Notes: a model not told the origin generated them from the letters alone. A stretch of DNA of 27,471 nt from an uncultured Candidatus Saccharibacteria bacterium (GCA_964652865.1 CAZZBG010000002.1:1-27471), one strand, 5' to 3'; shown: positions 1,147 to 22,595, counted from the stretch's first letter. Translations and numbers: made by a program.

Positions 1147-2004
1147 ATGCTTAAAAATAAAAAGCGTATATTCGGTTTGTTTACTTCTTTACTTGCATTA
1201 ACTTTTTTGTTTCCTGGCGTGGGTAAGGCAGTTAGTATTGCCGGGGACTGTAAGGCGTCATTGTATTTTGCAGTGACTGAAACAAATGGTAAACAAATTA
1301 CAGAGCTGATTCCTGCCCAAATCGGATCACTTAGTGTTGTTTTGTACATGAAGGTAGATTTTAATGACGCTGCTAAGTGCGATACATCCACATGGTCTAG
1401 TGTTACAGCATTCCGTGGTTTTGACGCACTTGTGAAAGATGCAAATCAGTTTATTGGAAATGGTGTTATCACAGCAGTGAGTCCTACTCAATACGAAGTT
1501 AAGCAGACAATAACGACTAGTAATCTACCCGACACGCTTGGGGCAGTACCTAAGGCAGGGTCTAAGATACAGTTACGTGGGTTTATAAATCTTAGAGATG
1601 CAAGTTTGCGTGATAACTTTGTTTATAGCGCTACAAGCACAATCAGTGTGACTGGCAGTGCTCCTAGCGGAGCGCCTACTCCATCAGGGGCAACCGAAAC
1701 TCCATCTACAACCCCTTCTCCAACCTTTACGCCGGGGGTGATTGCCACAATCCAAAACCCGATTCCATTTAACTCACTTGGTGAATTGTTGGTCGCGGCG
1801 ATACGATTTATTTTGACGATGCTTGGTGCGCTTGCGGTGTTCTTTATTATTGTGGGAGCAGTTAAGATGGTAACTTCGCAGGGGAACGAAAAAAATATTA
1901 CGTCTGGTAAGCAAACTATTCAGTGGGCGGTTATTGGTTTAATAGTTGCGCTTATGTCGTTCTCGGTTATTGCGCTCGTCCAAAGTTTCTTGCAGAGACA
2001 ATAA
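1147..2004 (+). CDS. Pilin-fusion 1: signal peptide, unknown beta-rich domain, P/T/S linker, C-terminal TrbC/VirB2-like pilin
   Basis: Signal peptide MLKNKKRIFGLF...VGKA and a PTPSGATETPSTTPSPT linker. The C-terminal two-TM hairpin carries the loop GAVKMVTSQGNEKNITSGKQTIQWAVIG shared with the five neighbours. Confidence 0.85.
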   Translation: MLKNKKRIFGLFTSLLALTFLFPGVGKAVSIAGDCKASLYFAVTETNGKQITELIPAQIGSLSVVLYMKVDFNDAAKCDTSTWSSVTAFRGFDALVKDANQFIGNGVITAVSPTQYEVKQTITTSNLPDTLGAVPKAGSKIQLRGFINLRDASLRDNFVYSATSTISVTGSAPSGAPTPSGATETPSTTPSPTFTPGVIATIQNPIPFNSLGELLVAAIRFILTMLGALAVFFIIVGAVKMVTSQGNEKNITSGKQTIQWAVIGLIVALMSFSVIALVQSFLQRQ

Positions 2005-2044
2005 CGGTTTTTGGCAACATGCCTTTTACAAATTAAACAACCGT

Positions 2045-3001
2045 ATGAAGTTTGCACACATAAAACACGCTCACATATTTTTCGGTTCACTAGCTTTGCT
2101 CGTGCTCGTTTTGGTGCTCATGGATACCAACATTGCTCACGCTGCACTGGTTACGTGTGGTAATGGTGATGGGGGGAAGATTGAAGATAGTTGCAAGTTT
2201 GGAGATTTTTTTAACACTGCTATTGCGTTCATTGACTACATGCTTGCTGGTGCTGCTGTTGCGGCAGTGGGTGGTGTTGTGTGGGGTGGTGCGCTCATGG
2301 TCACTTCCGCTGGTAACCAAAGCAAGGTAGAAACTGGTAAGAAGTCTGTAAAGAATTCGGTGATTGGACTCTCCATTATCCTTGTCGCATTTTTGTTGGT
2401 TCGCAGTGTGTTTACTATATTAGGCTTTCAAGGGGGTGATGCACCGCTGTCTAACCCTGGCGGATTTACCGATCCAAATAGCGGTTTTCAACTGATAAAC
2501 CCTGGGGAAAATAGTGGCGGAACCAACCCTACACCAGCGCCATCTGGTACCACTGGCACTGTGCCTGCCCCATCTGGGTCGTCGCAGGAACTTGCGCAAA
2601 AGATATTGCAAACATTGGGTGCTGGTTGTTTTCGAGATTCCCATATTAGTGGGCTGGGTGTAGGAGATGGTGCAACAGCACGAGATAACATAGTAGATGT
2701 TGCTGCAGGGAGAGCTGCAAAGCGAAGTAGTTACGGTTCTACCACTATTGGGGGGTCTACGACGCTGGACCCACGTATGCTCCAAGCAATGCTCGCTATC
2801 TATGGTGCTGGCTACTCGAGCATATGTCCAATAACCGCTATTGCGGGTAGTGCACATAATACGCGAGCTTCAGCGCACTACTCTGGCAAAGCGTTTGATA
2901 TTGACCAAACTTTGAACGCCGCAAGTATTTTGGCGATTTGCAAACAGTATGGTGCAACTGGGGCGATTAACGAAGGAAATCATTTGCATTGCGAATGGTA
3001 A
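2045..3001 (+). CDS. Pilin-fusion 2: signal peptide, TrbC/VirB2-like pilin, linker, C-terminal M15-type (Hedgehog/DD-peptidase fold) Zn peptidase
   Basis: Start reassigned to ATG 2045, 40 nt after the upstream stop. Pilin loop GGALMVTSAGNQSKVETGKKSVKNSVIG. The C-terminus has SAHYSGKAFDI (H-x6-D) and NHLHCEW (HxH). Confidence 0.8.
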   Translation: MKFAHIKHAHIFFGSLALLVLVLVLMDTNIAHAALVTCGNGDGGKIEDSCKFGDFFNTAIAFIDYMLAGAAVAAVGGVVWGGALMVTSAGNQSKVETGKKSVKNSVIGLSIILVAFLLVRSVFTILGFQGGDAPLSNPGGFTDPNSGFQLINPGENSGGTNPTPAPSGTTGTVPAPSGSSQELAQKILQTLGAGCFRDSHISGLGVGDGATARDNIVDVAAGRAAKRSSYGSTTIGGSTTLDPRMLQAMLAIYGAGYSSICPITAIAGSAHNTRASAHYSGKAFDIDQTLNAASILAICKQYGATGAINEGNHLHCEW

Positions 3002-3019
3002 AACTATATTGAGAATTAT

Positions 3020-3772
3020 ATGAACCAAATCATCTTTTTTATTCGCAAGCATGCACTATTGGTAGGGGTTTTATTTCTCCTTTCTGCTGGTGCAGTTTAC
3101 GCACAAGCAACAAATCCGTTTGCGTGTCCGCAGTACCCAGAGCAAAAAGTTGGAAGTCGTGGTACGTGTGTGCAGCGCATTAAGTGGCACTTGAACAACA
3201 AACAAACTCCTTCCCCTGCATTTGATTTGGAAGGTGATACTGCGCCAGTGTTCGACGCAAAGACCTTACAGCAAGTGCAGAAATGGCAAAAAGATAAAGG
3301 TCTTAACTGTACCGAAGGGGTAGTAGGGCCTGAAACATGGAATTCGTTTGAACCAGGGCTTGGTATGACTGGCCCTTGTGTGGATGGAACAATTAAGACT
3401 GGCGGTAATTCTACCGGAACTACTGGTAACGCTGGATACAGCAACGACCTTACAAAAGAGTGTAAAGATCTGGAACAAAGTTTTACTGATTTTGGGGGCA
3501 GCGTCCCTGGGTCACTCGCGCTTAATTGTTATAGCCCAGGTCAAGGGTTAAACAAAATAATTCGACTTGCGTTTACGTTTGTTGGTATACTCGCTGTTCT
3601 GTTTATTGTGATTGGCGGGTATAAGTACATGACTGCGGCAGGGGACGACAAAAAAGCAGGTGCAGGTAAGAAAACAATTCAATGGGCACTTATTGGTTTA
3701 ATAGCCACACTGTTTGCGTATTCTATTGTCGCTATTGCAACTCGGTTTGCGACACAAAGCACGATTTTCTAG
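3020..3772 (+). CDS. Pilin-fusion 3: signal peptide, peptidoglycan-binding (PG_binding_1-like) domain, C-terminal TrbC/VirB2-like pilin
   Basis: KVGSRGTCVQRIKWHLN...FDAKTLQQVQKWQKDKGL...EGVVGPETWNSF fits the PG_binding_1 pattern. Pilin loop GGYKYMTAAGDDKKAGAGKKTIQWALIG. Confidence 0.85.
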   Translation: MNQIIFFIRKHALLVGVLFLLSAGAVYAQATNPFACPQYPEQKVGSRGTCVQRIKWHLNNKQTPSPAFDLEGDTAPVFDAKTLQQVQKWQKDKGLNCTEGVVGPETWNSFEPGLGMTGPCVDGTIKTGGNSTGTTGNAGYSNDLTKECKDLEQSFTDFGGSVPGSLALNCYSPGQGLNKIIRLAFTFVGILAVLFIVIGGYKYMTAAGDDKKAGAGKKTIQWALIGLIATLFAYSIVAIATRFATQSTIF

Positions 3773-3804
3773 GAAGCAGGAATTAGGTTCTAGGTGGTAG
3801 TAAA

Positions 3805-3845
3805 AACAAAGGTTACCTTCGTACTCTACGAAGGTAACCTTTGTT
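3805..3845. repeat. Perfect 19-bp inverted repeat with 3-nt loop
   Basis: AACAAAGGTTACCTTCGTA-CTC-TACGAAGGTAACCTTTGTT, 32 nt after the pilin-3 stop. Probably a terminator or mRNA stabiliser. Confidence 0.9.
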
Positions 3846-4177
3846 GTCAGAAGCACCAAACCACAAGCACGAAATAGCAAATAAATTCCAATAGTAAAAC
3901 TCCAAACAAATGCAATTCAGTTTTGAGTTTGCAGTTACAGTTTTACGTTTTGTCTTTTGAGTTTGCAGTTCTTTTGACATCAAGACGTTACGACATTAAG
4001 ACGTGAAGACTTATGGTTCTTTCGTTCGACGTTGCGACGTGAAGACTCTCTTGTCTTTCTCGTTTCCCCGCATTCTGCGGGACCCGCTTGAGCGGGCTCG
4101 CTACCCACCTCTTCGGTGGGTCGCCGAAGAGGCGACTAGTTACTCGTTACTTGCTGCCCTAGCGCAATTGCCACTAA

Positions 4178-4188
4178 TGTGGTATACT
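4178..4188 (+). promoter_or_regulatory. Extended -10 promoter for the stand-alone pilin
   Basis: TGTGG-TATACT about 55 nt upstream of the start. No good -35. Confidence 0.5.
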
Positions 4189-4243
4189 CAAAAAGTATTC
4201 ATGGCGTGGAGATTCCGCGCTTTAAGGAAGGGGGTGAATAGAT

Positions 4244-4639
4244 TTGAAACAAATGTTGAAGAATGTTAACTGGCTTGGTTGGGCTCAAGCTTTGCTTGTA
4301 TTTGCTCTTATCCTCGCTCCAGTTACTGTAAGTGCAGCTAAATTGACTGCTCCAAGCGGTCTTTGTGCCACTGGTTTGAATTGTGAAGACAACTTGTCTA
4401 TCAACGGTATTATCATCAGAATCATTAACTGGATTTTGGCGATTGTATTGGCTGTTGACGTGCTCATGATTATCATTGGTGGGTTCATGTACGTAACTTC
4501 TGCTGGTGACGAAGGTCGCGCAAAGAAGGGTCGTACAACCGTTGTCAACGCTATTATCGGACTTGTAATCATCATTTTGGCATATGTTATTGCCAACGTG
4601 GTTTCCAACTTCTTTAGTGCGGATAGACTCCAATCTTAA
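4244..4639 (+). CDS. Stand-alone TrbC/VirB2-like pilin (candidate major subunit)
   Basis: TTG start after a strong SD-like AAGGAAGGGGGTGA, signal peptide ending PVTVSA, a C-x5-C loop and the loop GGFMYVTSAGDEGRAKKGRTTVVNAIIG. No cargo domain. Confidence 0.9.
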   Translation: MKQMLKNVNWLGWAQALLVFALILAPVTVSAAKLTAPSGLCATGLNCEDNLSINGIIIRIINWILAIVLAVDVLMIIIGGFMYVTSAGDEGRAKKGRTTVVNAIIGLVIIILAYVIANVVSNFFSADRLQS

Positions 4640-4722
4640 CCGCTTTTCGCCTACACTGCGTCGTGTTACCTCTCTTCTAGAGCTTGGCTGCAGCCACTCG
4701 GCGCAGTGAAGGCGAACCGGTT
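4638..4722 (+). other. Multibranched RNA structure immediately after the stand-alone pilin stop
   Basis: Outer stem TTCGCCT/AGGCGAA plus CACTGCGTCG/CGGCGCAGTG, closed by AACCG/CGGTT. Inner hairpins CTCT-TCT-AGAG and the palindrome TGGCTGCAGCCA. Confidence 0.7.
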
Positions 4723-4807
4723 TCTTTAACAGAAAAATATACGCGGGATTTCTTCTAAGAAAATGTTAGTAGTACTGCCGTGTTTATTTTTCTAAACACA
4801 AATAGAT

Positions 4808-5644
4808 ATGCTTTTTAGAAATTTTAATTTTGGTTCATTGTCTCGGAGCTTCTTTGTAGCTCGGATTTTTTTTGTTTTACTCTTTGCAGTAGCGACTCCG
4901 CTGACAGCGTACGGGCAACAAAGCGCGAGTGATCCAGTGATCGTAGAAAGTCGTGCATGCCCACAAATTTCTTCTCCGGCAAACTCTTGCTTTAGTTTGT
5001 CGCAAATGAAGCCAAGCGAATACGTTGTGCTTGTGGTGAGTAATGTCTTCCAGTACAATACGCTGAAAGTGTTCCTAGACGGTTCTACTGAACTGCAACA
5101 ACAAAACTTTGTACGCAATGGAGGAAATTTAGCCACAGTTGTAGCTGCGTTACCACAAGATATAGAGCCTGGCTCTGCACACCAAGTTGCTGTAATAATT
5201 GATCAAGGAAATGTGCCGAGCGCACCAGTGAATCTGTCTATCCGAGGGGTGGCACCAAGCACTGCACCTACTGGTGGAGGGGGCGCATCGGGTGGTGGGA
5301 GCACCACGCCGAAGCCTACGGTAAACCCAAATGCTGGTGGCAGTGTGAAAGATGGTCTCAAAGGCATAGCGGGTGAGTTCCAGTATCAAGGTGAACTTGC
5401 CCAATCGCAAACCATTGGAGATGTGATTGTCGCAGTCATCAACGTTTTACTAGGGTTGCTCATGGCAATTTCTGTGCTCATGATAATTTTTGGTGGCTTT
5501 ACCTATGTCACCGCAGCAGGGGCAGAGGACAAAGCTAAGAAGGCTCGCCGGATTATTACCTATGCGGTAACTGGTATGATAATAGTAATACTATCTTACA
5601 TGCTGGTGTCTACTATAAGTAACGCGCTAGATGGTCAAATCTAA
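4808..5644 (+). CDS. Pilin-fusion 5: signal peptide, Ig/IPT-like domain, G/S/T/P linker, C-terminal TrbC/VirB2-like pilin
   Basis: Signal peptide ending PLTAYG, a beta-rich domain and linker STAPTGGGGASGGGSTTPKP. Loop GGFTYVTAAGAEDKAKKARRIITYAVTG. The Ig assignment is tentative. Confidence 0.85.
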   Translation: MLFRNFNFGSLSRSFFVARIFFVLLFAVATPLTAYGQQSASDPVIVESRACPQISSPANSCFSLSQMKPSEYVVLVVSNVFQYNTLKVFLDGSTELQQQNFVRNGGNLATVVAALPQDIEPGSAHQVAVIIDQGNVPSAPVNLSIRGVAPSTAPTGGGGASGGGSTTPKPTVNPNAGGSVKDGLKGIAGEFQYQGELAQSQTIGDVIVAVINVLLGLLMAISVLMIIFGGFTYVTAAGAEDKAKKARRIITYAVTGMIIVILSYMLVSTISNALDGQI

Positions 5645-5648
5645 TAAT

Positions 5649-6557
5649 ATGAAAACTATTAAATACTTATTTACCTATTTCTTCCTCGTGGCTTTCATTT
5701 CGTTAACGAGTTTTATTCCTAATTTTGTCTTAGCTGCGTTTGGTGATATTACAAATATTTATAGTTGCAAAACAATCAAACCTCCTTCAACTATTCCTGA
5801 AGAATGTTATCCAGGGATTACAGTAGATGATTCGTACATTCTTTTGTACGGTTCAGGGTTTAATCCAGAGAGTGATACAGTAACGATAGCAGATGTAAAT
5901 GTACCTATTATTAAGAATGGGTCGAATGGTGGCATGCTTGTCTTGGATATGCCAAACTCTCTGCGTGCTGTCGCCAAAAATTCTACAGGACAAGTTGTTC
6001 TCTTGGTGAAAGCTATGAGCGGTGATTTTATTGAAAAGTCTGTGTCTCTCCTTTGCGCCAATGAAGCATGTGCCGCCACAACTTCTCCTACCCCAATAAT
6101 TAGTTCAACACCGAATGCTTCGGTAACACCAAAGCCTTCCGGTGCTTCTCCGTCTCCAACGGGTAGTGGTAGCGCTACTCCTCCAACTCAGCCCATAGAG
6201 ACAGACTTACGCGGTGAGTGTCAGAAGCAGGGGTTGCAATACGACAATGCGAGCGGGTTGTGCTTGCCAACGAACCCGTACAAGGCCAGTGCAGATAGCT
6301 TGGCGGGCCAGACAACACTCGGTGGGCTCATTCGTCGAGTGCTGAATATCTTACTGACTTTGGCTGGGGTGGTCGCTGTGCTCATGATTATTTTGGGTGG
6401 GTACCAGTACGTTACCTCTCGTGGTGCAGAAGACCAAGCAAAGGCTGGTCGCAAGACAATTACTTACGCTGCTATTGGACTTATCGCTGTACTCTTGGCA
6501 TATATGCTGGTCACGGTTGTTACGAACTTTGCCACACAAGGCGTGTTGTTTAACTAA
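5649..6557 (+). CDS. Pilin-fusion 6: signal peptide, IPT/TIG-like domain, P/S/T linker, C-terminal TrbC/VirB2-like pilin
   Basis: Start reassigned to ATG 5649, 4 nt after the upstream stop. ILLYGSGFNP resembles the IPT/TIG GxxF strand. Loop GGYQYVTSRGAEDQAKAGRKTITYAAIG. Confidence 0.85.
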   Translation: MKTIKYLFTYFFLVAFISLTSFIPNFVLAAFGDITNIYSCKTIKPPSTIPEECYPGITVDDSYILLYGSGFNPESDTVTIADVNVPIIKNGSNGGMLVLDMPNSLRAVAKNSTGQVVLLVKAMSGDFIEKSVSLLCANEACAATTSPTPIISSTPNASVTPKPSGASPSPTGSGSATPPTQPIETDLRGECQKQGLQYDNASGLCLPTNPYKASADSLAGQTTLGGLIRRVLNILLTLAGVVAVLMIILGGYQYVTSRGAEDQAKAGRKTITYAAIGLIAVLLAYMLVTVVTNFATQGVLFN

Positions 6558-6573
6558 AATCTGTCGGGCATAT

Positions 6574-6608
6574 AACCCTCGATTCGCATAGAATCGAGGG
6601 TTTTTTTT
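6574..6608 (+). terminator. Rho-independent terminator closing the pilin array
   Basis: AACCCTCGATTC-GCATA-GAATCGAGGGTT followed by a T run. Confidence 0.9.
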
Positions 6609-10063: not shown

Positions 10064-12682
10064 ATGCATTTAAAACGACTAGAAATTCACGGTTTCAAAT
10101 CTTTTGCTCAGAATACCGTGCTCGAATTTGAGCCTGGTATAACTGCAATTGTAGGGCCAAATGGGAGTGGGAAGAGTAACGTATCCGATGCGGTTCGTTG
10201 GGTTTTGGGTGAGCAATCCGCCAAGCAGCTTCGTGGTAAAAAAAGCGATGATGTAGTATTTGCGGGAAGTGACAAGCGTGCTCGTGGTGGCTTTGCAGAA
10301 GTCACGGCGACTTTTGATAATGCGGACAGAAGAATCCCTATTGATTCACCAGAGGTAAGCATTGGCCGAAGAGTAGATCGAAGTGGGGAAAGTGAATATT
10401 TGATAAATGGGAGCAGGGTCCGCTTGTTGGATATTATTGATCTTGTACTTAAAAGCAATATCGGTACTTCGCGCTATACCGTTATCGGTCAAGGAACGAT
10501 TGATCAACTGATTCTTGCAGGGCCAACCGAAATTAAAAGCTTAATTGACGAAGCGAGTGGAGTTAAAACATACCACTCCAGACGAGAAAAGACGCTGAAG
10601 CGGTTGGAGCAAACCGCACAGAACTTGATGCGTGCGGAAGATGTGGTACGAGAACTAGAGCCACGTTTGAAAAGCTTGCGTCGGCAGGCAAAGCGTATGG
10701 AAGCGCGCGAAGGGCTGGAGTTAGAACTTTCGGTCCTTCAACGTGAGCGATTGGGTGGGGCATATTTCAATTTAACGCAGGAAATAGAGCAACTCTCTAC
10801 CCGTGCTGCCACATTTGTCCAACAGCGGGAAGCGGCAGAAGAGCAAATTTCACTCAGTCGTAAGCGCTTAGAAGGACTTTCTGGAGAGGCTTCGCGCGAC
10901 CTGACTGCGCTTGCAACTATTCGTCGCGATTTACTTGCTTTACAAGAACAGAAAAATCGCCTTTTTGAACAAAGGAGCATCTTACAAGGAAAGCTTGCAG
11001 GAGCCCGACTTGGTACAGCGGGGGATCCAAGAGTACTACAACTGCAAGCCTCACAAATAGAGACAAAGTTAGCTGTGTTAGATACTCAGTTGGCAGAGGC
11101 TTCTCGTGTATTTGAAGAAAGCCACTCTTTGGCTCTTTCTGCAGAAGCAGAAAAGGCTGCGGTCGAGCGGCATTTGGAAGAGTTGTACCAAATTCTATCT
11201 GCACCAGTTGCGGTAGACGAGAGTGCATACGAGCGAGTTATGGAAGAGCTTCACGGTGCGGTACATGCATTTTTAGCAACACTCGAAAATGCAACAGAGA
11301 TTGCTGAAATTCGTCATACAGTTTCTGCTTTCAAACAAACTTACTCTCAGTTACGACATGAAGCAAAAGCACTTGCTTCTGGATCTGCTCCTGTAGCAGT
11401 ACAAGAAGCTCAGGTAGAACTTAAGAAGTTGCACGCAGCAAAGTCTTCCTTGGAGCAGCAATTGTCACAACTCTCAGTCCGTCGGGCGAGCGCAGAAACG
11501 AGCAAACGGCTTATCGAAGAACAAAGGCAAACCTTGCTGCAAGAGCAGCTGGATGTTCGTTTAGAGTTGCAAAAAGCTTCTGGAGTTGCTGCTGATACAT
11601 TTGTCCATGATTTAACTGCAGAGTCGAGTGGGGTTGACCAGAAGATCGCCCAGTTGCAAAACGAAATCAGAGTGTTAGAAGAGAAAGCAGCGCAGTTAGA
11701 CGGTAACGAGTCAGAGCGCCGAAGATTTGTGACAGATGCAGAGAAGGAAATGCGTGGGGTCCAAGAGCATATTAATACGCTTCGTGACGCAGAAGGTAAA
11801 CTAGCGGTAGAAAAAGCGCGCCTCGATACGCAGCGCGATGCTGTTGTGCAAGAAATCCGACAGCTCTTTACAGAACCAGTTGCGGGTGAAGTGTTGCAGA
11901 CAAATACCGGCAGTATTGCTCCCGATATTTTTGAGCGGATTGCGAAAGTAAAACACCAGCTAGAACTGATTGGCGGGGTAGATGAAATGACCATGCAAGA
12001 ATACAGAGAGACTGAAGAACGGTTTACTCGATTGTCTGAACAGATACAAGATTTGCGACGCAGCATGGAAGATCTCAAGCAGGTCATGGATGAGCTTGAT
12101 GAACACATTAAAACTCGGTTCAACGAAGCGTTCCATAAGATTAACGAACGCTTTGAATCATATTTCAGAGTATTGTTTAACGGTGGTAGGGCTCAGCTGA
12201 CTTTGGTACGCGCAGCGGATGAATCAAAATCGGAAGATGCTACTGAAGAAGGAGACGATACCGCAAAAGAGCAACAAAGGCCAGAAGAAAAACTTGTACA
12301 AAAATATGAATCTGGCGGAAGTAATGTAGTAGGTGTTGATATGAAAGCGACGCCGCCAGGGAAGAAGCTAGCAGCTATACAAGCACTATCTGGTGGAGAG
12401 CGCGCACTGACTTCTATCGCATTACTTTGTGCTTTGCTCGCATGTTTCCCTTCCCCGTTTGTAGTGCTCGACGAAGTTGATGCTGCGCTCGACGAAGCAA
12501 ATACCATACGGTTTGGGCAGATTGTGGGAACACTGTCACATCAAACTCAATTTGTAACCATTAGCCACAATCGCGAGACCATGGCACAAAGCAAAATGCT
12601 GTATGGGGTTACTATGGGAGATGATGGCGTATCTAAGATTTTAAGCCTGAAGTTTGACCAAGCAACAGCATATGCCAAGTAA
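10064..12682 (+). CDS. smc: SMC-family chromosome segregation ATPase, short form with no recognisable hinge
   Basis: Walker A GPNGSGKSN, signature LSGGERAL, Walker B/D-loop VVLDEVDAALDEAN, H-loop ISHNRET, coiled coils and rnc-smc synteny. Confidence 0.92.
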   Translation: MHLKRLEIHGFKSFAQNTVLEFEPGITAIVGPNGSGKSNVSDAVRWVLGEQSAKQLRGKKSDDVVFAGSDKRARGGFAEVTATFDNADRRIPIDSPEVSIGRRVDRSGESEYLINGSRVRLLDIIDLVLKSNIGTSRYTVIGQGTIDQLILAGPTEIKSLIDEASGVKTYHSRREKTLKRLEQTAQNLMRAEDVVRELEPRLKSLRRQAKRMEAREGLELELSVLQRERLGGAYFNLTQEIEQLSTRAATFVQQREAAEEQISLSRKRLEGLSGEASRDLTALATIRRDLLALQEQKNRLFEQRSILQGKLAGARLGTAGDPRVLQLQASQIETKLAVLDTQLAEASRVFEESHSLALSAEAEKAAVERHLEELYQILSAPVAVDESAYERVMEELHGAVHAFLATLENATEIAEIRHTVSAFKQTYSQLRHEAKALASGSAPVAVQEAQVELKKLHAAKSSLEQQLSQLSVRRASAETSKRLIEEQRQTLLQEQLDVRLELQKASGVAADTFVHDLTAESSGVDQKIAQLQNEIRVLEEKAAQLDGNESERRRFVTDAEKEMRGVQEHINTLRDAEGKLAVEKARLDTQRDAVVQEIRQLFTEPVAGEVLQTNTGSIAPDIFERIAKVKHQLELIGGVDEMTMQEYRETEERFTRLSEQIQDLRRSMEDLKQVMDELDEHIKTRFNEAFHKINERFESYFRVLFNGGRAQLTLVRAADESKSEDATEEGDDTAKEQQRPEEKLVQKYESGGSNVVGVDMKATPPGKKLAAIQALSGGERALTSIALLCALLACFPSPFVVLDEVDAALDEANTIRFGQIVGTLSHQTQFVTISHNRETMAQSKMLYGVTMGDDGVSKILSLKFDQATAYAK

Positions 12683-22250: not shown

Positions 22251-22595
22251 ATGGTACACTATATTCCACGCTTCGGTGATTTTGTGTATATAGCATTTGA
22301 TCCACAGTCTGGCCATGAACAAAAAGGTAGGAGACCAGCTTTGGTTACGAGTAATAGCTTGTTCAACCAGAAGACTGGTATGGCTTTTGTTTGCCCAGTA
22401 ACAAGTACCGTTAGAGGTAACCCATTCCATTTGCCCATTCCCACTCAAAATTCTGTGACCGGTGTCGTTATGGTAGACCAGATAAAGTCAGTGGATTACG
22501 CATCACGAAATGTAGAGTTCATTGCACCAGCTCCAGAAATTCTGGTAGCAGATGTTGTATCATTATTAAACACGATTTTAGAAGAGCGTTTCTAG
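22251..22595 (+). CDS. mazF: PemK/MazF-family endoribonuclease toxin
   Basis: YIPRFGDFVYIAFDPQSGHEQKGRRPALV...VCPVTS...DQIKSVDY, directly behind mazE. Confidence 0.95.
   Translation: MVHYIPRFGDFVYIAFDPQSGHEQKGRRPALVTSNSLFNQKTGMAFVCPVTSTVRGNPFHLPIPTQNSVTGVVMVDQIKSVDYASRNVEFIAPAPEILVADVVSLLNTILEERF

Follow-up and report, generated by a model that had tools for sequence, protein, structure and literature searches.

An array of six pilin-like hairpin genes, five of them fused to additional domains, in a Candidatus Saccharibacteria genome

Results

Six hairpin genes in tandem

The DNA analysed here (hereafter 'the window') is a stretch of 27,471 nucleotides (nt) from an uncultured Candidatus Saccharibacteria bacterium (GCA_964652865.1 CAZZBG010000002.1:1-27471), equivalent to contig C2 of an 884 kb genome that is held in 124 contigs and is 91% complete; the public runs for its source are DNA metagenomes only, from wastewater and freshwater. 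Between positions 1147 and 6557 lie six genes, all in the same (+) orientation and closely spaced, whose products share a two-helix hairpin resembling the pilins of type IV secretion systems (T4SS). Five of the six add to this hairpin a further segment of 110-150 amino acids (aa), here termed 'cargo'.

Gene 1 (1147-2004, 285 aa) reads as signal peptide, N-terminal cargo, linker and C-terminal hairpin, the last at residues 221-269 of 285 (nt 1804-1953). The order is reversed in gene 2 (2045-3001, 318 aa), in which an N-terminal hairpin (residues ~69-119, nt 2252-2404) follows the signal peptide, and a Pro/Thr/Ser/Gly (PTSG) linker leads to a C-terminal cargo of peptidase type (residues ~171-318); its start was taken as the ATG at 2045, as in the database entry, and not as the upstream TTG of the mechanical open reading frame (ORF). 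Gene 3 (3020-3772, 250 aa) encodes a signal peptide, a PG_binding_1 domain, a linker and a C-terminal hairpin (residues 177-237 of 250, nt 3548-3730). Gene 4 (4244-4639, 131 aa) is a bare pilin: after the signal peptide and a short Cys-x-Cys tip, the hairpin (residues 52-120 of 131, nt 4397-4603) makes up nearly the whole mature protein. In gene 5 (4808-5644, 278 aa) a signal peptide, a probable IPT/TIG-like beta-sandwich and a Gly/Ser/Pro/Thr linker precede the C-terminal hairpin (residues 201-270 of 278, nt 5405-5617), and in gene 6 (5631-6557, 308 aa) the corresponding order is signal peptide, immunoglobulin (Ig)-like sandwich apparently of IPT/TIG type, Pro/Thr linker, disulfide mini-module and C-terminal hairpin (residues 227-297 of 308, nt 6309-6521). 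Cargo is N-terminal of the hairpin in genes 1, 3, 5 and 6, C-terminal in gene 2 and lacking in gene 4, which is the arrangement that the original prediction, made from the window alone, had described.

A 40-nt inverted repeat, terminator-like on both strands, follows gene 3 (3806-3845), within a gap of 471 nt (3773-4243) ahead of the bare pilin gene. Some of this gap (~3892-4158) is unalignable with the closest relative, genome G003; the alignment picks up again at 4159, with 91% identity. Directly upstream of gene 4 (4178-4243, +) we read a promoter-like extended -10 element (TG-n-TATACT) and a long purine-rich tract resembling a Shine-Dalgarno (SD) sequence, which would serve expression of that gene. 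The array ends in a terminator-like hairpin with a 12-bp stem and a T run (6574-6602, +), beyond which come tRNA-Leu, ftsH, tRNA-Val, RNase III and then ordinary housekeeping genes. An Rfam scan of the window returned two tRNAs and nothing else. Profile scans of the window proteins found no phage gene and, as had been anticipated, no gene for T4SS machinery, VirB4 included.

The shared hairpin

All six products score above the curated cut-off of the T4SS_pilin family (PF18895; 28.7-46 bits against 26.6), genes 1 to 6 reaching 28.7, 28.8, 40.2, 39.2, 31.2 and 46 bits; a further protein, on contig C21, brings the matches in the genome to seven. These scores support membership of the T4SS_pilin/VirB2-like family. 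Aligned with one another, the paralogous hairpins are 21-41% identical and have in common the loop G-G-x-x-Y-V-T-S-x-G ... G-K-x-T-I ... I-G-L, with a conserved G-K/R. The regular expression first proposed for this loop occurs in exactly six places in the six-frame translation of the 124 contigs, all of them in the array genes, and nowhere in five full shuffles of the genome.

Each of the six N-termini has a basic and then a hydrophobic segment that ends in an AXA-like site, which we read as a cleavable signal peptide, and the genome contains a signal peptidase I gene. Hydropathy indicates two more hydrophobic helices in every protein, with a short basic loop between them. Linkers rich in Pro, Thr, Ser and Gly, 20-44 residues in length, are present in five of the six, so that both the signal-peptide-like N-termini and the linkers of the original prediction hold. 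The number of cysteines is even in each mature protein, which fits an extracytoplasmic location.

The hairpin was compared with solved proteins in two ways. A profile built from seven hairpin sequences had as its sole match among PDB sequences a sensory rhodopsin transducer, at chance level, and this candidate was rejected. Foldseek superposed the hairpin on the conjugative pilus of A. pernix with a TM-score of 0.65 but an E-value of 6.

The cargo domains

The cargo of gene 3 is a PG_binding_1 domain (PF01471), at 27.8 bits in the whole protein and 29.5 bits when the cargo is taken alone (cut-off 23). Cargo of the same similarity cluster was found, besides the window, in six fetched array loci from five genomes of the same genus.

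For gene 2, the M15 peptidase that had been proposed is better described at the level of the superfamily, and the closest Pfam model, Peptidase_M15_3, stays below its cut-off (E 0.085; 13.4 bits against 23.2). The 12 close orthologues all keep the motif S-x-H-Y-x-G-K-x-F-D and a terminal H-C-x-W unchanged; in the latter region's H-x-H the first His, present in the window protein, is replaced in some orthologues, and the last is invariant. The domain on its own has 391 homologues in a search of 1.84 billion representative proteins, and the zinc motif is near-invariant among 59-106 of the distant ones. A profile of 59 of these sequences matched the N-domain of Sonic hedgehog in the PDB (E 5.5e-5) with both zinc motifs aligned, followed by the Streptomyces DD-carboxypeptidase 1lbu (E 0.14) and LdcB (E 1.4). 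Among 106 homologues, other domains were PG_binding_1 (19), PG_binding_3 (15), T4SS_pilin (7) and SLT (2); matches to Extensin-like_C (3), Peptidase_M15_4 (2) and VanY (1) may overlap with the domain itself. The AlphaFold2 (AF2) model has a predicted local distance difference test (pLDDT) score of 72-94, and Foldseek matched it to nothing significant in the PDB (best E ~1; best relevant match the VldE C-domain, E ~2), so the assignment rests on profile and motif. In our reading, the gene 2 cargo is a predicted wall peptidase from a branch of the LAS group (Hedgehog/DD-peptidase, clan MD) that current models do not cover.

The Ig-like domain proposed for gene 6 is supported by its AF2 model, which is all-beta over residues 39-141 (pLDDT 72-86). 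Its top Foldseek matches in the PDB have a probability of 1.0 and E-values of 1e-3 to 1e-2, and include the IPT/TIG domain of EBF3; others are BT_3476, presumably matched on its N-terminal Ig-like domain, and CGTase entries, which we likewise take to be matched on an Ig-like domain. The IPT/TIG family itself (PF01833) matches no window protein even at E 10 and one orthologue at E 0.01, under the cut-off, and a homologue search with the gene 6 cargo returned itself and one relative only. An Ig-like sandwich of IPT/TIG type is the assignment that the model supports. A PT-rich linker of 44 aa and the small disulfide mini-module separate this cargo from the hairpin.

The cargo of gene 5 aligns to the gene 6 family pattern, and its Atlas feature matches, no more than a lead, are for the most part to TIG (score 0.8), so it is probably an IPT/TIG-like beta-sandwich too. 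Gene 1 has a cargo of ~140 aa that looks beta-rich by eye, ahead of a 43-aa PTSG linker; an Atlas search gave non-specific beta-sandwich leads only, and we assign it no identity. Pfam searches at E 10 with the isolated cargos of genes 1, 5 and 6 were empty, and the Atlas search returned pilin clusters for gene 6 only.

A conserved hairpin and a mosaic cargo

Measured over 76 columns, which include the loop GG-x-x-Y-V-T-S-x-G-N-E-E, the hairpin alignment holds 185.6 bits of information for 59 cargo-bearing proteins and 178.6 bits for 111 bare ones; hairpins with cargo are thus conserved to the same degree as bare ones.

The comparison with G003, whose ftsH is 98.4% identical in aa sequence at a synonymous divergence (dS) of 0.30, sets hairpin against cargo. 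Between the two genomes, genes 1, 5 and 6 have hairpins of 100% identity at dS 0.20-0.28, and hairpin nonsynonymous divergence (dN) is 0-0.03 overall. For cargo, dN is 0.14-0.43, and dS runs from 1.1 to saturated in genes 1, 2, 3 and 6; in the cargos of genes 1-3, dN is 0.14-0.19 at dS of at least 1.7. Synonymous divergence of the cargo is several times the genomic background, which indicates allele replacement by recombination and not only fast point change. Gene 6 illustrates the boundary: its cargo is 56% identical to that of G003 and nt 5673-6124 cannot be aligned by blastn, whereas linker and hairpin (6125-6605) are 94.8% identical, placing the break at the linker. Hairpins are under strong purifying selection, and cargo is mosaic and hypervariable between close relatives; we suggest that cargo modules may be exchanged by recombination near the linker.

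Across the genus, orthologues of gene 4 keep a near-invariant hairpin; their variation is confined to the tips at the two termini, both predicted to be exposed on the outside.

Arrays in relatives and across the phylum

Every one of 31 genomes of the same order has 6-10 PF18895 matches. From these relatives we fetched 32 loci with 171 hairpin ORFs, 61 of which (36%) are at least 185 aa long; all 61 match T4SS_pilin, and six also match PG_binding_1, one TIG and one DUF11. The 58 cargo segments obtained from the 31 genomes fall into 34 similarity clusters. The complete six-gene layout recurs, identically, in one relative of the same genus, G003. The array lies beside ftsH in 16 of 18 relatives of the same family and in 4 of the 12 that belong to other families of the order, with rnc nearby in many; the stretches fetched from G005:C7, G004:C55 and G013 gave no ftsH match.

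Seven of the 171 hairpin ORFs contain two or three hairpins in one polypeptide. Three complete hairpins in tandem, each with the loop motif, occur in a 363-aa protein of G026 (L056:8502-9593, -) and a 353-aa protein of G020 (L050:6551-7612, -), and double hairpins in four other relatives; one (L058) has a weak third match. Such concatenation shows that hairpins tolerate side-by-side placement, and the covalent chaining suggests that they are neighbours in the finished assembly too.

At the level of the phylum, PF18895 was present in 197 of 201 sampled genomes and, by a hand count of the listing, ORFs of 200-1263 aa account for roughly a fifth of the top 150 matches.

T4SS genes and a seventh hairpin protein elsewhere in the genome

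Assembly machinery is encoded outside the window, and the original prediction therefore escapes the refutation it had named, a genome lacking such machinery. Contig C50 carries PrgI/VirB3 (PrgI 38 bits, above its cut-off) and a VirB4 of the CD1110 family (357 bits, cut-off 325), and contig C1 a VirD4-like coupling protein above its cut-off. A TrbL/VirB6-like protein on C22 is borderline with respect to a cut-off of 25.9, scoring 25.4 bits for the hit alone, 26.6 with its frame neighbours and 21.9 in a direct scan.

The match of the C50 VirB4 (617 aa, L013:2359-4212) to the CD1110 model, which has 752 positions, is limited to positions 158-730, and a 233-aa ORF with a weak TraC N-terminal match precedes it in another frame (L013:1649-2350). 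Other genomes also have VirB4 frames of 614-653 aa, and in one case of 804 aa; VirB4 on C50 is possibly naturally split.

The seventh PF18895 match (26.9 bits) lies in a 488-aa ORF on C21 (L016:2647-4113, -) that also has an SLT (lytic transglycosylase) domain (69.9 bits against 21.3). From the N-terminus its order is hairpin, Cys-rich middle domain and SLT; the gene is not adjacent to virB4, and adjoins one for a coiled-coil M23 peptidase (L016:4141-5430). Hairpin and SLT share one ORF in at least five relatives, and there are also relatives with a small second cluster in which one hairpin protein has the middle domain and another has SLT. An M15-like motif read by eye in the middle domain of the C21 protein was unsupported (Pfam empty at E 10).

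Transpeptidase-domain matches were found in five open frames of the genome, from which it appears that the bacterium makes its own peptidoglycan (PG).

Other genes of the window

Downstream of the array, we observed three further genes of note. An SMC protein (10064-12682) of 872 aa is far shorter than typical bacterial SMC, with N- and C-terminal heads that match SMC_N. The 630-aa product of 13393-15285 matches right-handed beta-helix/NosD models and, in its C-terminal part, an Ig-like one (N_BRCA1_IG); amid the housekeeping genes, it may encode a further surface protein. Immediately 5' of ymdB is a gene for a MazF/PemK-type toxin (22251-22595), and the short ORF that precedes it might be a candidate antitoxin.

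Discussion

On these findings, we lean towards a model in which the locus encodes the VirB2-like pilin set of a monoderm-type T4SS, the hairpin acting as a shared assembly module and the fusions tethering wall-binding, wall-cutting and Ig-like adhesion domains at the apparatus or its filament. Each product would be exported by Sec and lose its signal peptide. The two-helix hairpin would then span the membrane, its basic loop on the inner side and both of its ends exposed, as its sequence and the known topology of VirB2 and TraA suggest, and would recruit all seven proteins to the membrane assembly of the bare pilin, possibly into the same filament, whilst long Pro/Thr-rich linkers keep the cargo outside. 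We suggest that the PG-binding domain, the LAS-type zinc peptidase and the lytic transglycosylase of the second locus could together supply a wall-opening activity of the VirB1 kind, and that the Ig-like TIG domains probably bind a partner surface. Gene 4 is probably the major subunit, since it comes after a terminator-like repeat and has an extended -10 element and a long SD-like tract, and so its own promoter-like signals. Family membership, architecture, the machinery genes, the identities of the cargo and the pattern of selection are shown by the data, whereas we infer topology, co-assembly and stoichiometry; the wall addressed may be the organism's own or that of a host.

How far out the fused proteins would reach is a separate matter. 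It appears doubtful that they enter an extended pilus, rather than staying at the membrane base. The most elaborate form of the model takes the hairpin as an assembly tag and has the T4SS extrude a mixed filament, of bare major pilin with minor subunits that bear a wall binder, wall cutters and fast-evolving Ig-like adhesins, so that the pilus both attaches to and breaches the host wall; we offer this as speculation that is, on present evidence, rather unlikely to be correct in full. If true, an enzyme-decorated pilus would explain why pilins and T4SS are essential for epibiotic growth.

Several observations weigh against a pilin set of this kind. TrbC/VirB2 (PF04956), to which the hairpins had originally been likened, is matched in the window at best by gene 6 at E 0.045; that part of the assignment finds significant similarity only in relatives, where 9 of the 61 long hairpin proteins reach E<=1e-3 (best E 4.4e-6). 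The seven-sequence hairpin profile found no solved VirB2 or TraA among PDB sequences. In this genome and 30 relatives, no VirB4, VirB6-like or VirD4-like gene of the type found here lies within ~5 kb of the array. Three genomes (G031, G070 and G174) have no PF18895 match at E<=1e-5, yet encode a VirB4 47-54% identical to that of this genome; VirB4 is retained in 3 of 4 genomes without PF18895, and there is no signal of co-loss. Either the pilins of these three have diverged beyond the model, or a T4SS can exist without them. Cargo of the size seen here, on five of six subunit types, would be hard to fit into a tight VirB2-type lattice except at low copy. Finally, no pilus is reported for any Patescibacterium in the literature on these pilin arrays. 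A complex prediction that combined three bare pilins with the mature PG-binding pilin scored 0.00; it was run without controls and is no evidence either way.

Much of this would suit a simpler account, in which the hairpin does no more than hold Sec-exported surface proteins in the membrane, as an anchor peculiar to this family, with no tie to the T4SS and no polymer, and the locus a plain surface-protein locus. The separation of array and T4SS genes in this order, the persistence of VirB4 where PF18895 is not matched, and a polymerisation that neither structures nor complex prediction support would all be expected of it, and enzymes so tethered could act on the organism's own PG. The pattern of selection argues the other way: a mere anchor would have no need of a 28-residue loop motif, equally conserved in cargo-bearing and bare hairpins, nor of a hairpin dN near zero while cargo changes freely, and it is chiefly this strict conservation that disfavours the account. 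The genus, moreover, retains a member that lacks cargo and has expression signals of its own; TrbC/VirB2 similarity is significant in relatives; and for other genomes co-location with virB4 and joint essentiality have been published (PMC12102498, PMC10633639). We consider a mere anchor unlikely, though it is the main rival.

A second alternative, which we regard as improbable, keeps the pilin and changes its use: the paralogues would be interchangeable major pilins that serve antigenic or host-range variation, as proposed for the VirB2 paralogues of Bartonella and Anaplasma and suggested for Patescibacteria in a 2025 survey (PMC12102498). The low identity among paralogous hairpins, the mosaic and hypervariable cargo, and its spread over so many similarity clusters would all be in keeping with such a role. 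The members of the array differ in kind, however (enzyme, wall binder, Ig-like domain, bare pilin), and are not variants of one design; the order of slots recurs, up to the identical layout of G003; the PG-binding fusion is repeated within the genus; and all the genes point the same way, with little space between them and no sign of a switch element at the array. A phage-derived lysis module, made up of a holin-like two-helix protein and wall hydrolases, is hardly credible: two-helix proteins beside PG hydrolase domains resemble holin-endolysin pairs in outline only, and we rejected this reading on context and topology, as there are no phage genes in the window, the chromosomal site beside ftsH is conserved among relatives, PF18895 is found almost throughout the sampled phylum, and the signal peptides would give a topology opposite to that of class II holins.

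We return, then, to the VirB2-like pilin set and to how it compares with known systems. That Patescibacteria have multiple pilin genes, as the original prediction noted, is well documented (PMC10633639, PMC12102498, PMC12857230), and tandem VirB2-like arrays of this phylum are already known. S. epibionticum has such an array in SEML1_0014-0019 (Wang et al. 2023, PMC10633639), with six pilins that are essential together with the T4SS (PMC10633639, PMC12857230), and a search with PF18895 identified 441 arrays of 2-11 genes in 383 assemblies (Quinonero-Coronel et al. 2025, PMC12102498). The array described here is like these in family (PF18895/PF04956), in its tandem, co-oriented paralogues of low identity, in the presence of PrgI, VirB4 and VirB6 in the genome and in having no relaxase context. 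It differs in that five of six members carry 110-150 aa of cargo, where the pilins of S. epibionticum are ~125-185 aa in all, and in lying beside ftsH, not virB4; proximity to virB4, seen for pilins in 1135 of 1948 assemblies, is not obligatory (PMC12102498). What is new is the equal conservation of cargo-bearing hairpins, the mosaic and hypervariable cargo, and the position beside ftsH; in the literature on Patescibacteria pilin arrays we found no description of wall-active or Ig-like domains fused to VirB2-like pilins.

With the diderm VirB2/TrbC/TraA pilins (PF04956), the proteins share the signal peptide, two-helix hairpin, basic loop and an HMM (hidden Markov model) similarity that ranges from weak to significant. 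The canonical pilins, in contrast, are small and have no extra domains, and for the proteins described here polymerisation is putative. They also need VirB1/5/7-11, an outer-membrane core or a cyclase; none of these turned up here, though no search was aimed at them. The best non-Pfam match of the hairpins is the pilin-like Mbov_0395 family (NF045849) of a Mycoplasma integrative and conjugative element (ICE), with E-values down to 7.4e-9 and a similar monoderm-type conjugation; scores of 17.7-35.2 bits remain under its 40-bit cut-off, and the search indicated no cargo fusion for this 80-position model. Also comparable are the membrane-anchored VirB1-like wall hydrolases of Gram-positive systems, PrgK of pCF10 and TraG of pIP501 (PMC12102498), in which SLT and peptidase domains are likewise tethered to the membrane of a monoderm T4SS. 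Their anchor is a single helix and not a pilin hairpin, and the activities that they combine are here spread over LAS-type peptidase, PG_binding_1 and SLT proteins.

What the essential T4SS and its pilin array do for Patescibacteria is a question that the literature leaves open (PMC11665869, PMC12857230), and pilus biogenesis in these organisms seems not to need VirB1 (PMC12102498). The array described here joins a pilin module to domains of readable function, in wall binding, wall cutting and Ig-like adhesion, with the module conserved and the cargo swapped. Pilin fusions may themselves carry the wall-opening activity, which would be an answer to the puzzle that most pilin-bearing genomes lack VirB1. 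The array thereby offers testable candidates for host contact and envelope penetration, and, as this design is widespread in the phylum, testing them in a single cultivable species would be informative for many others.

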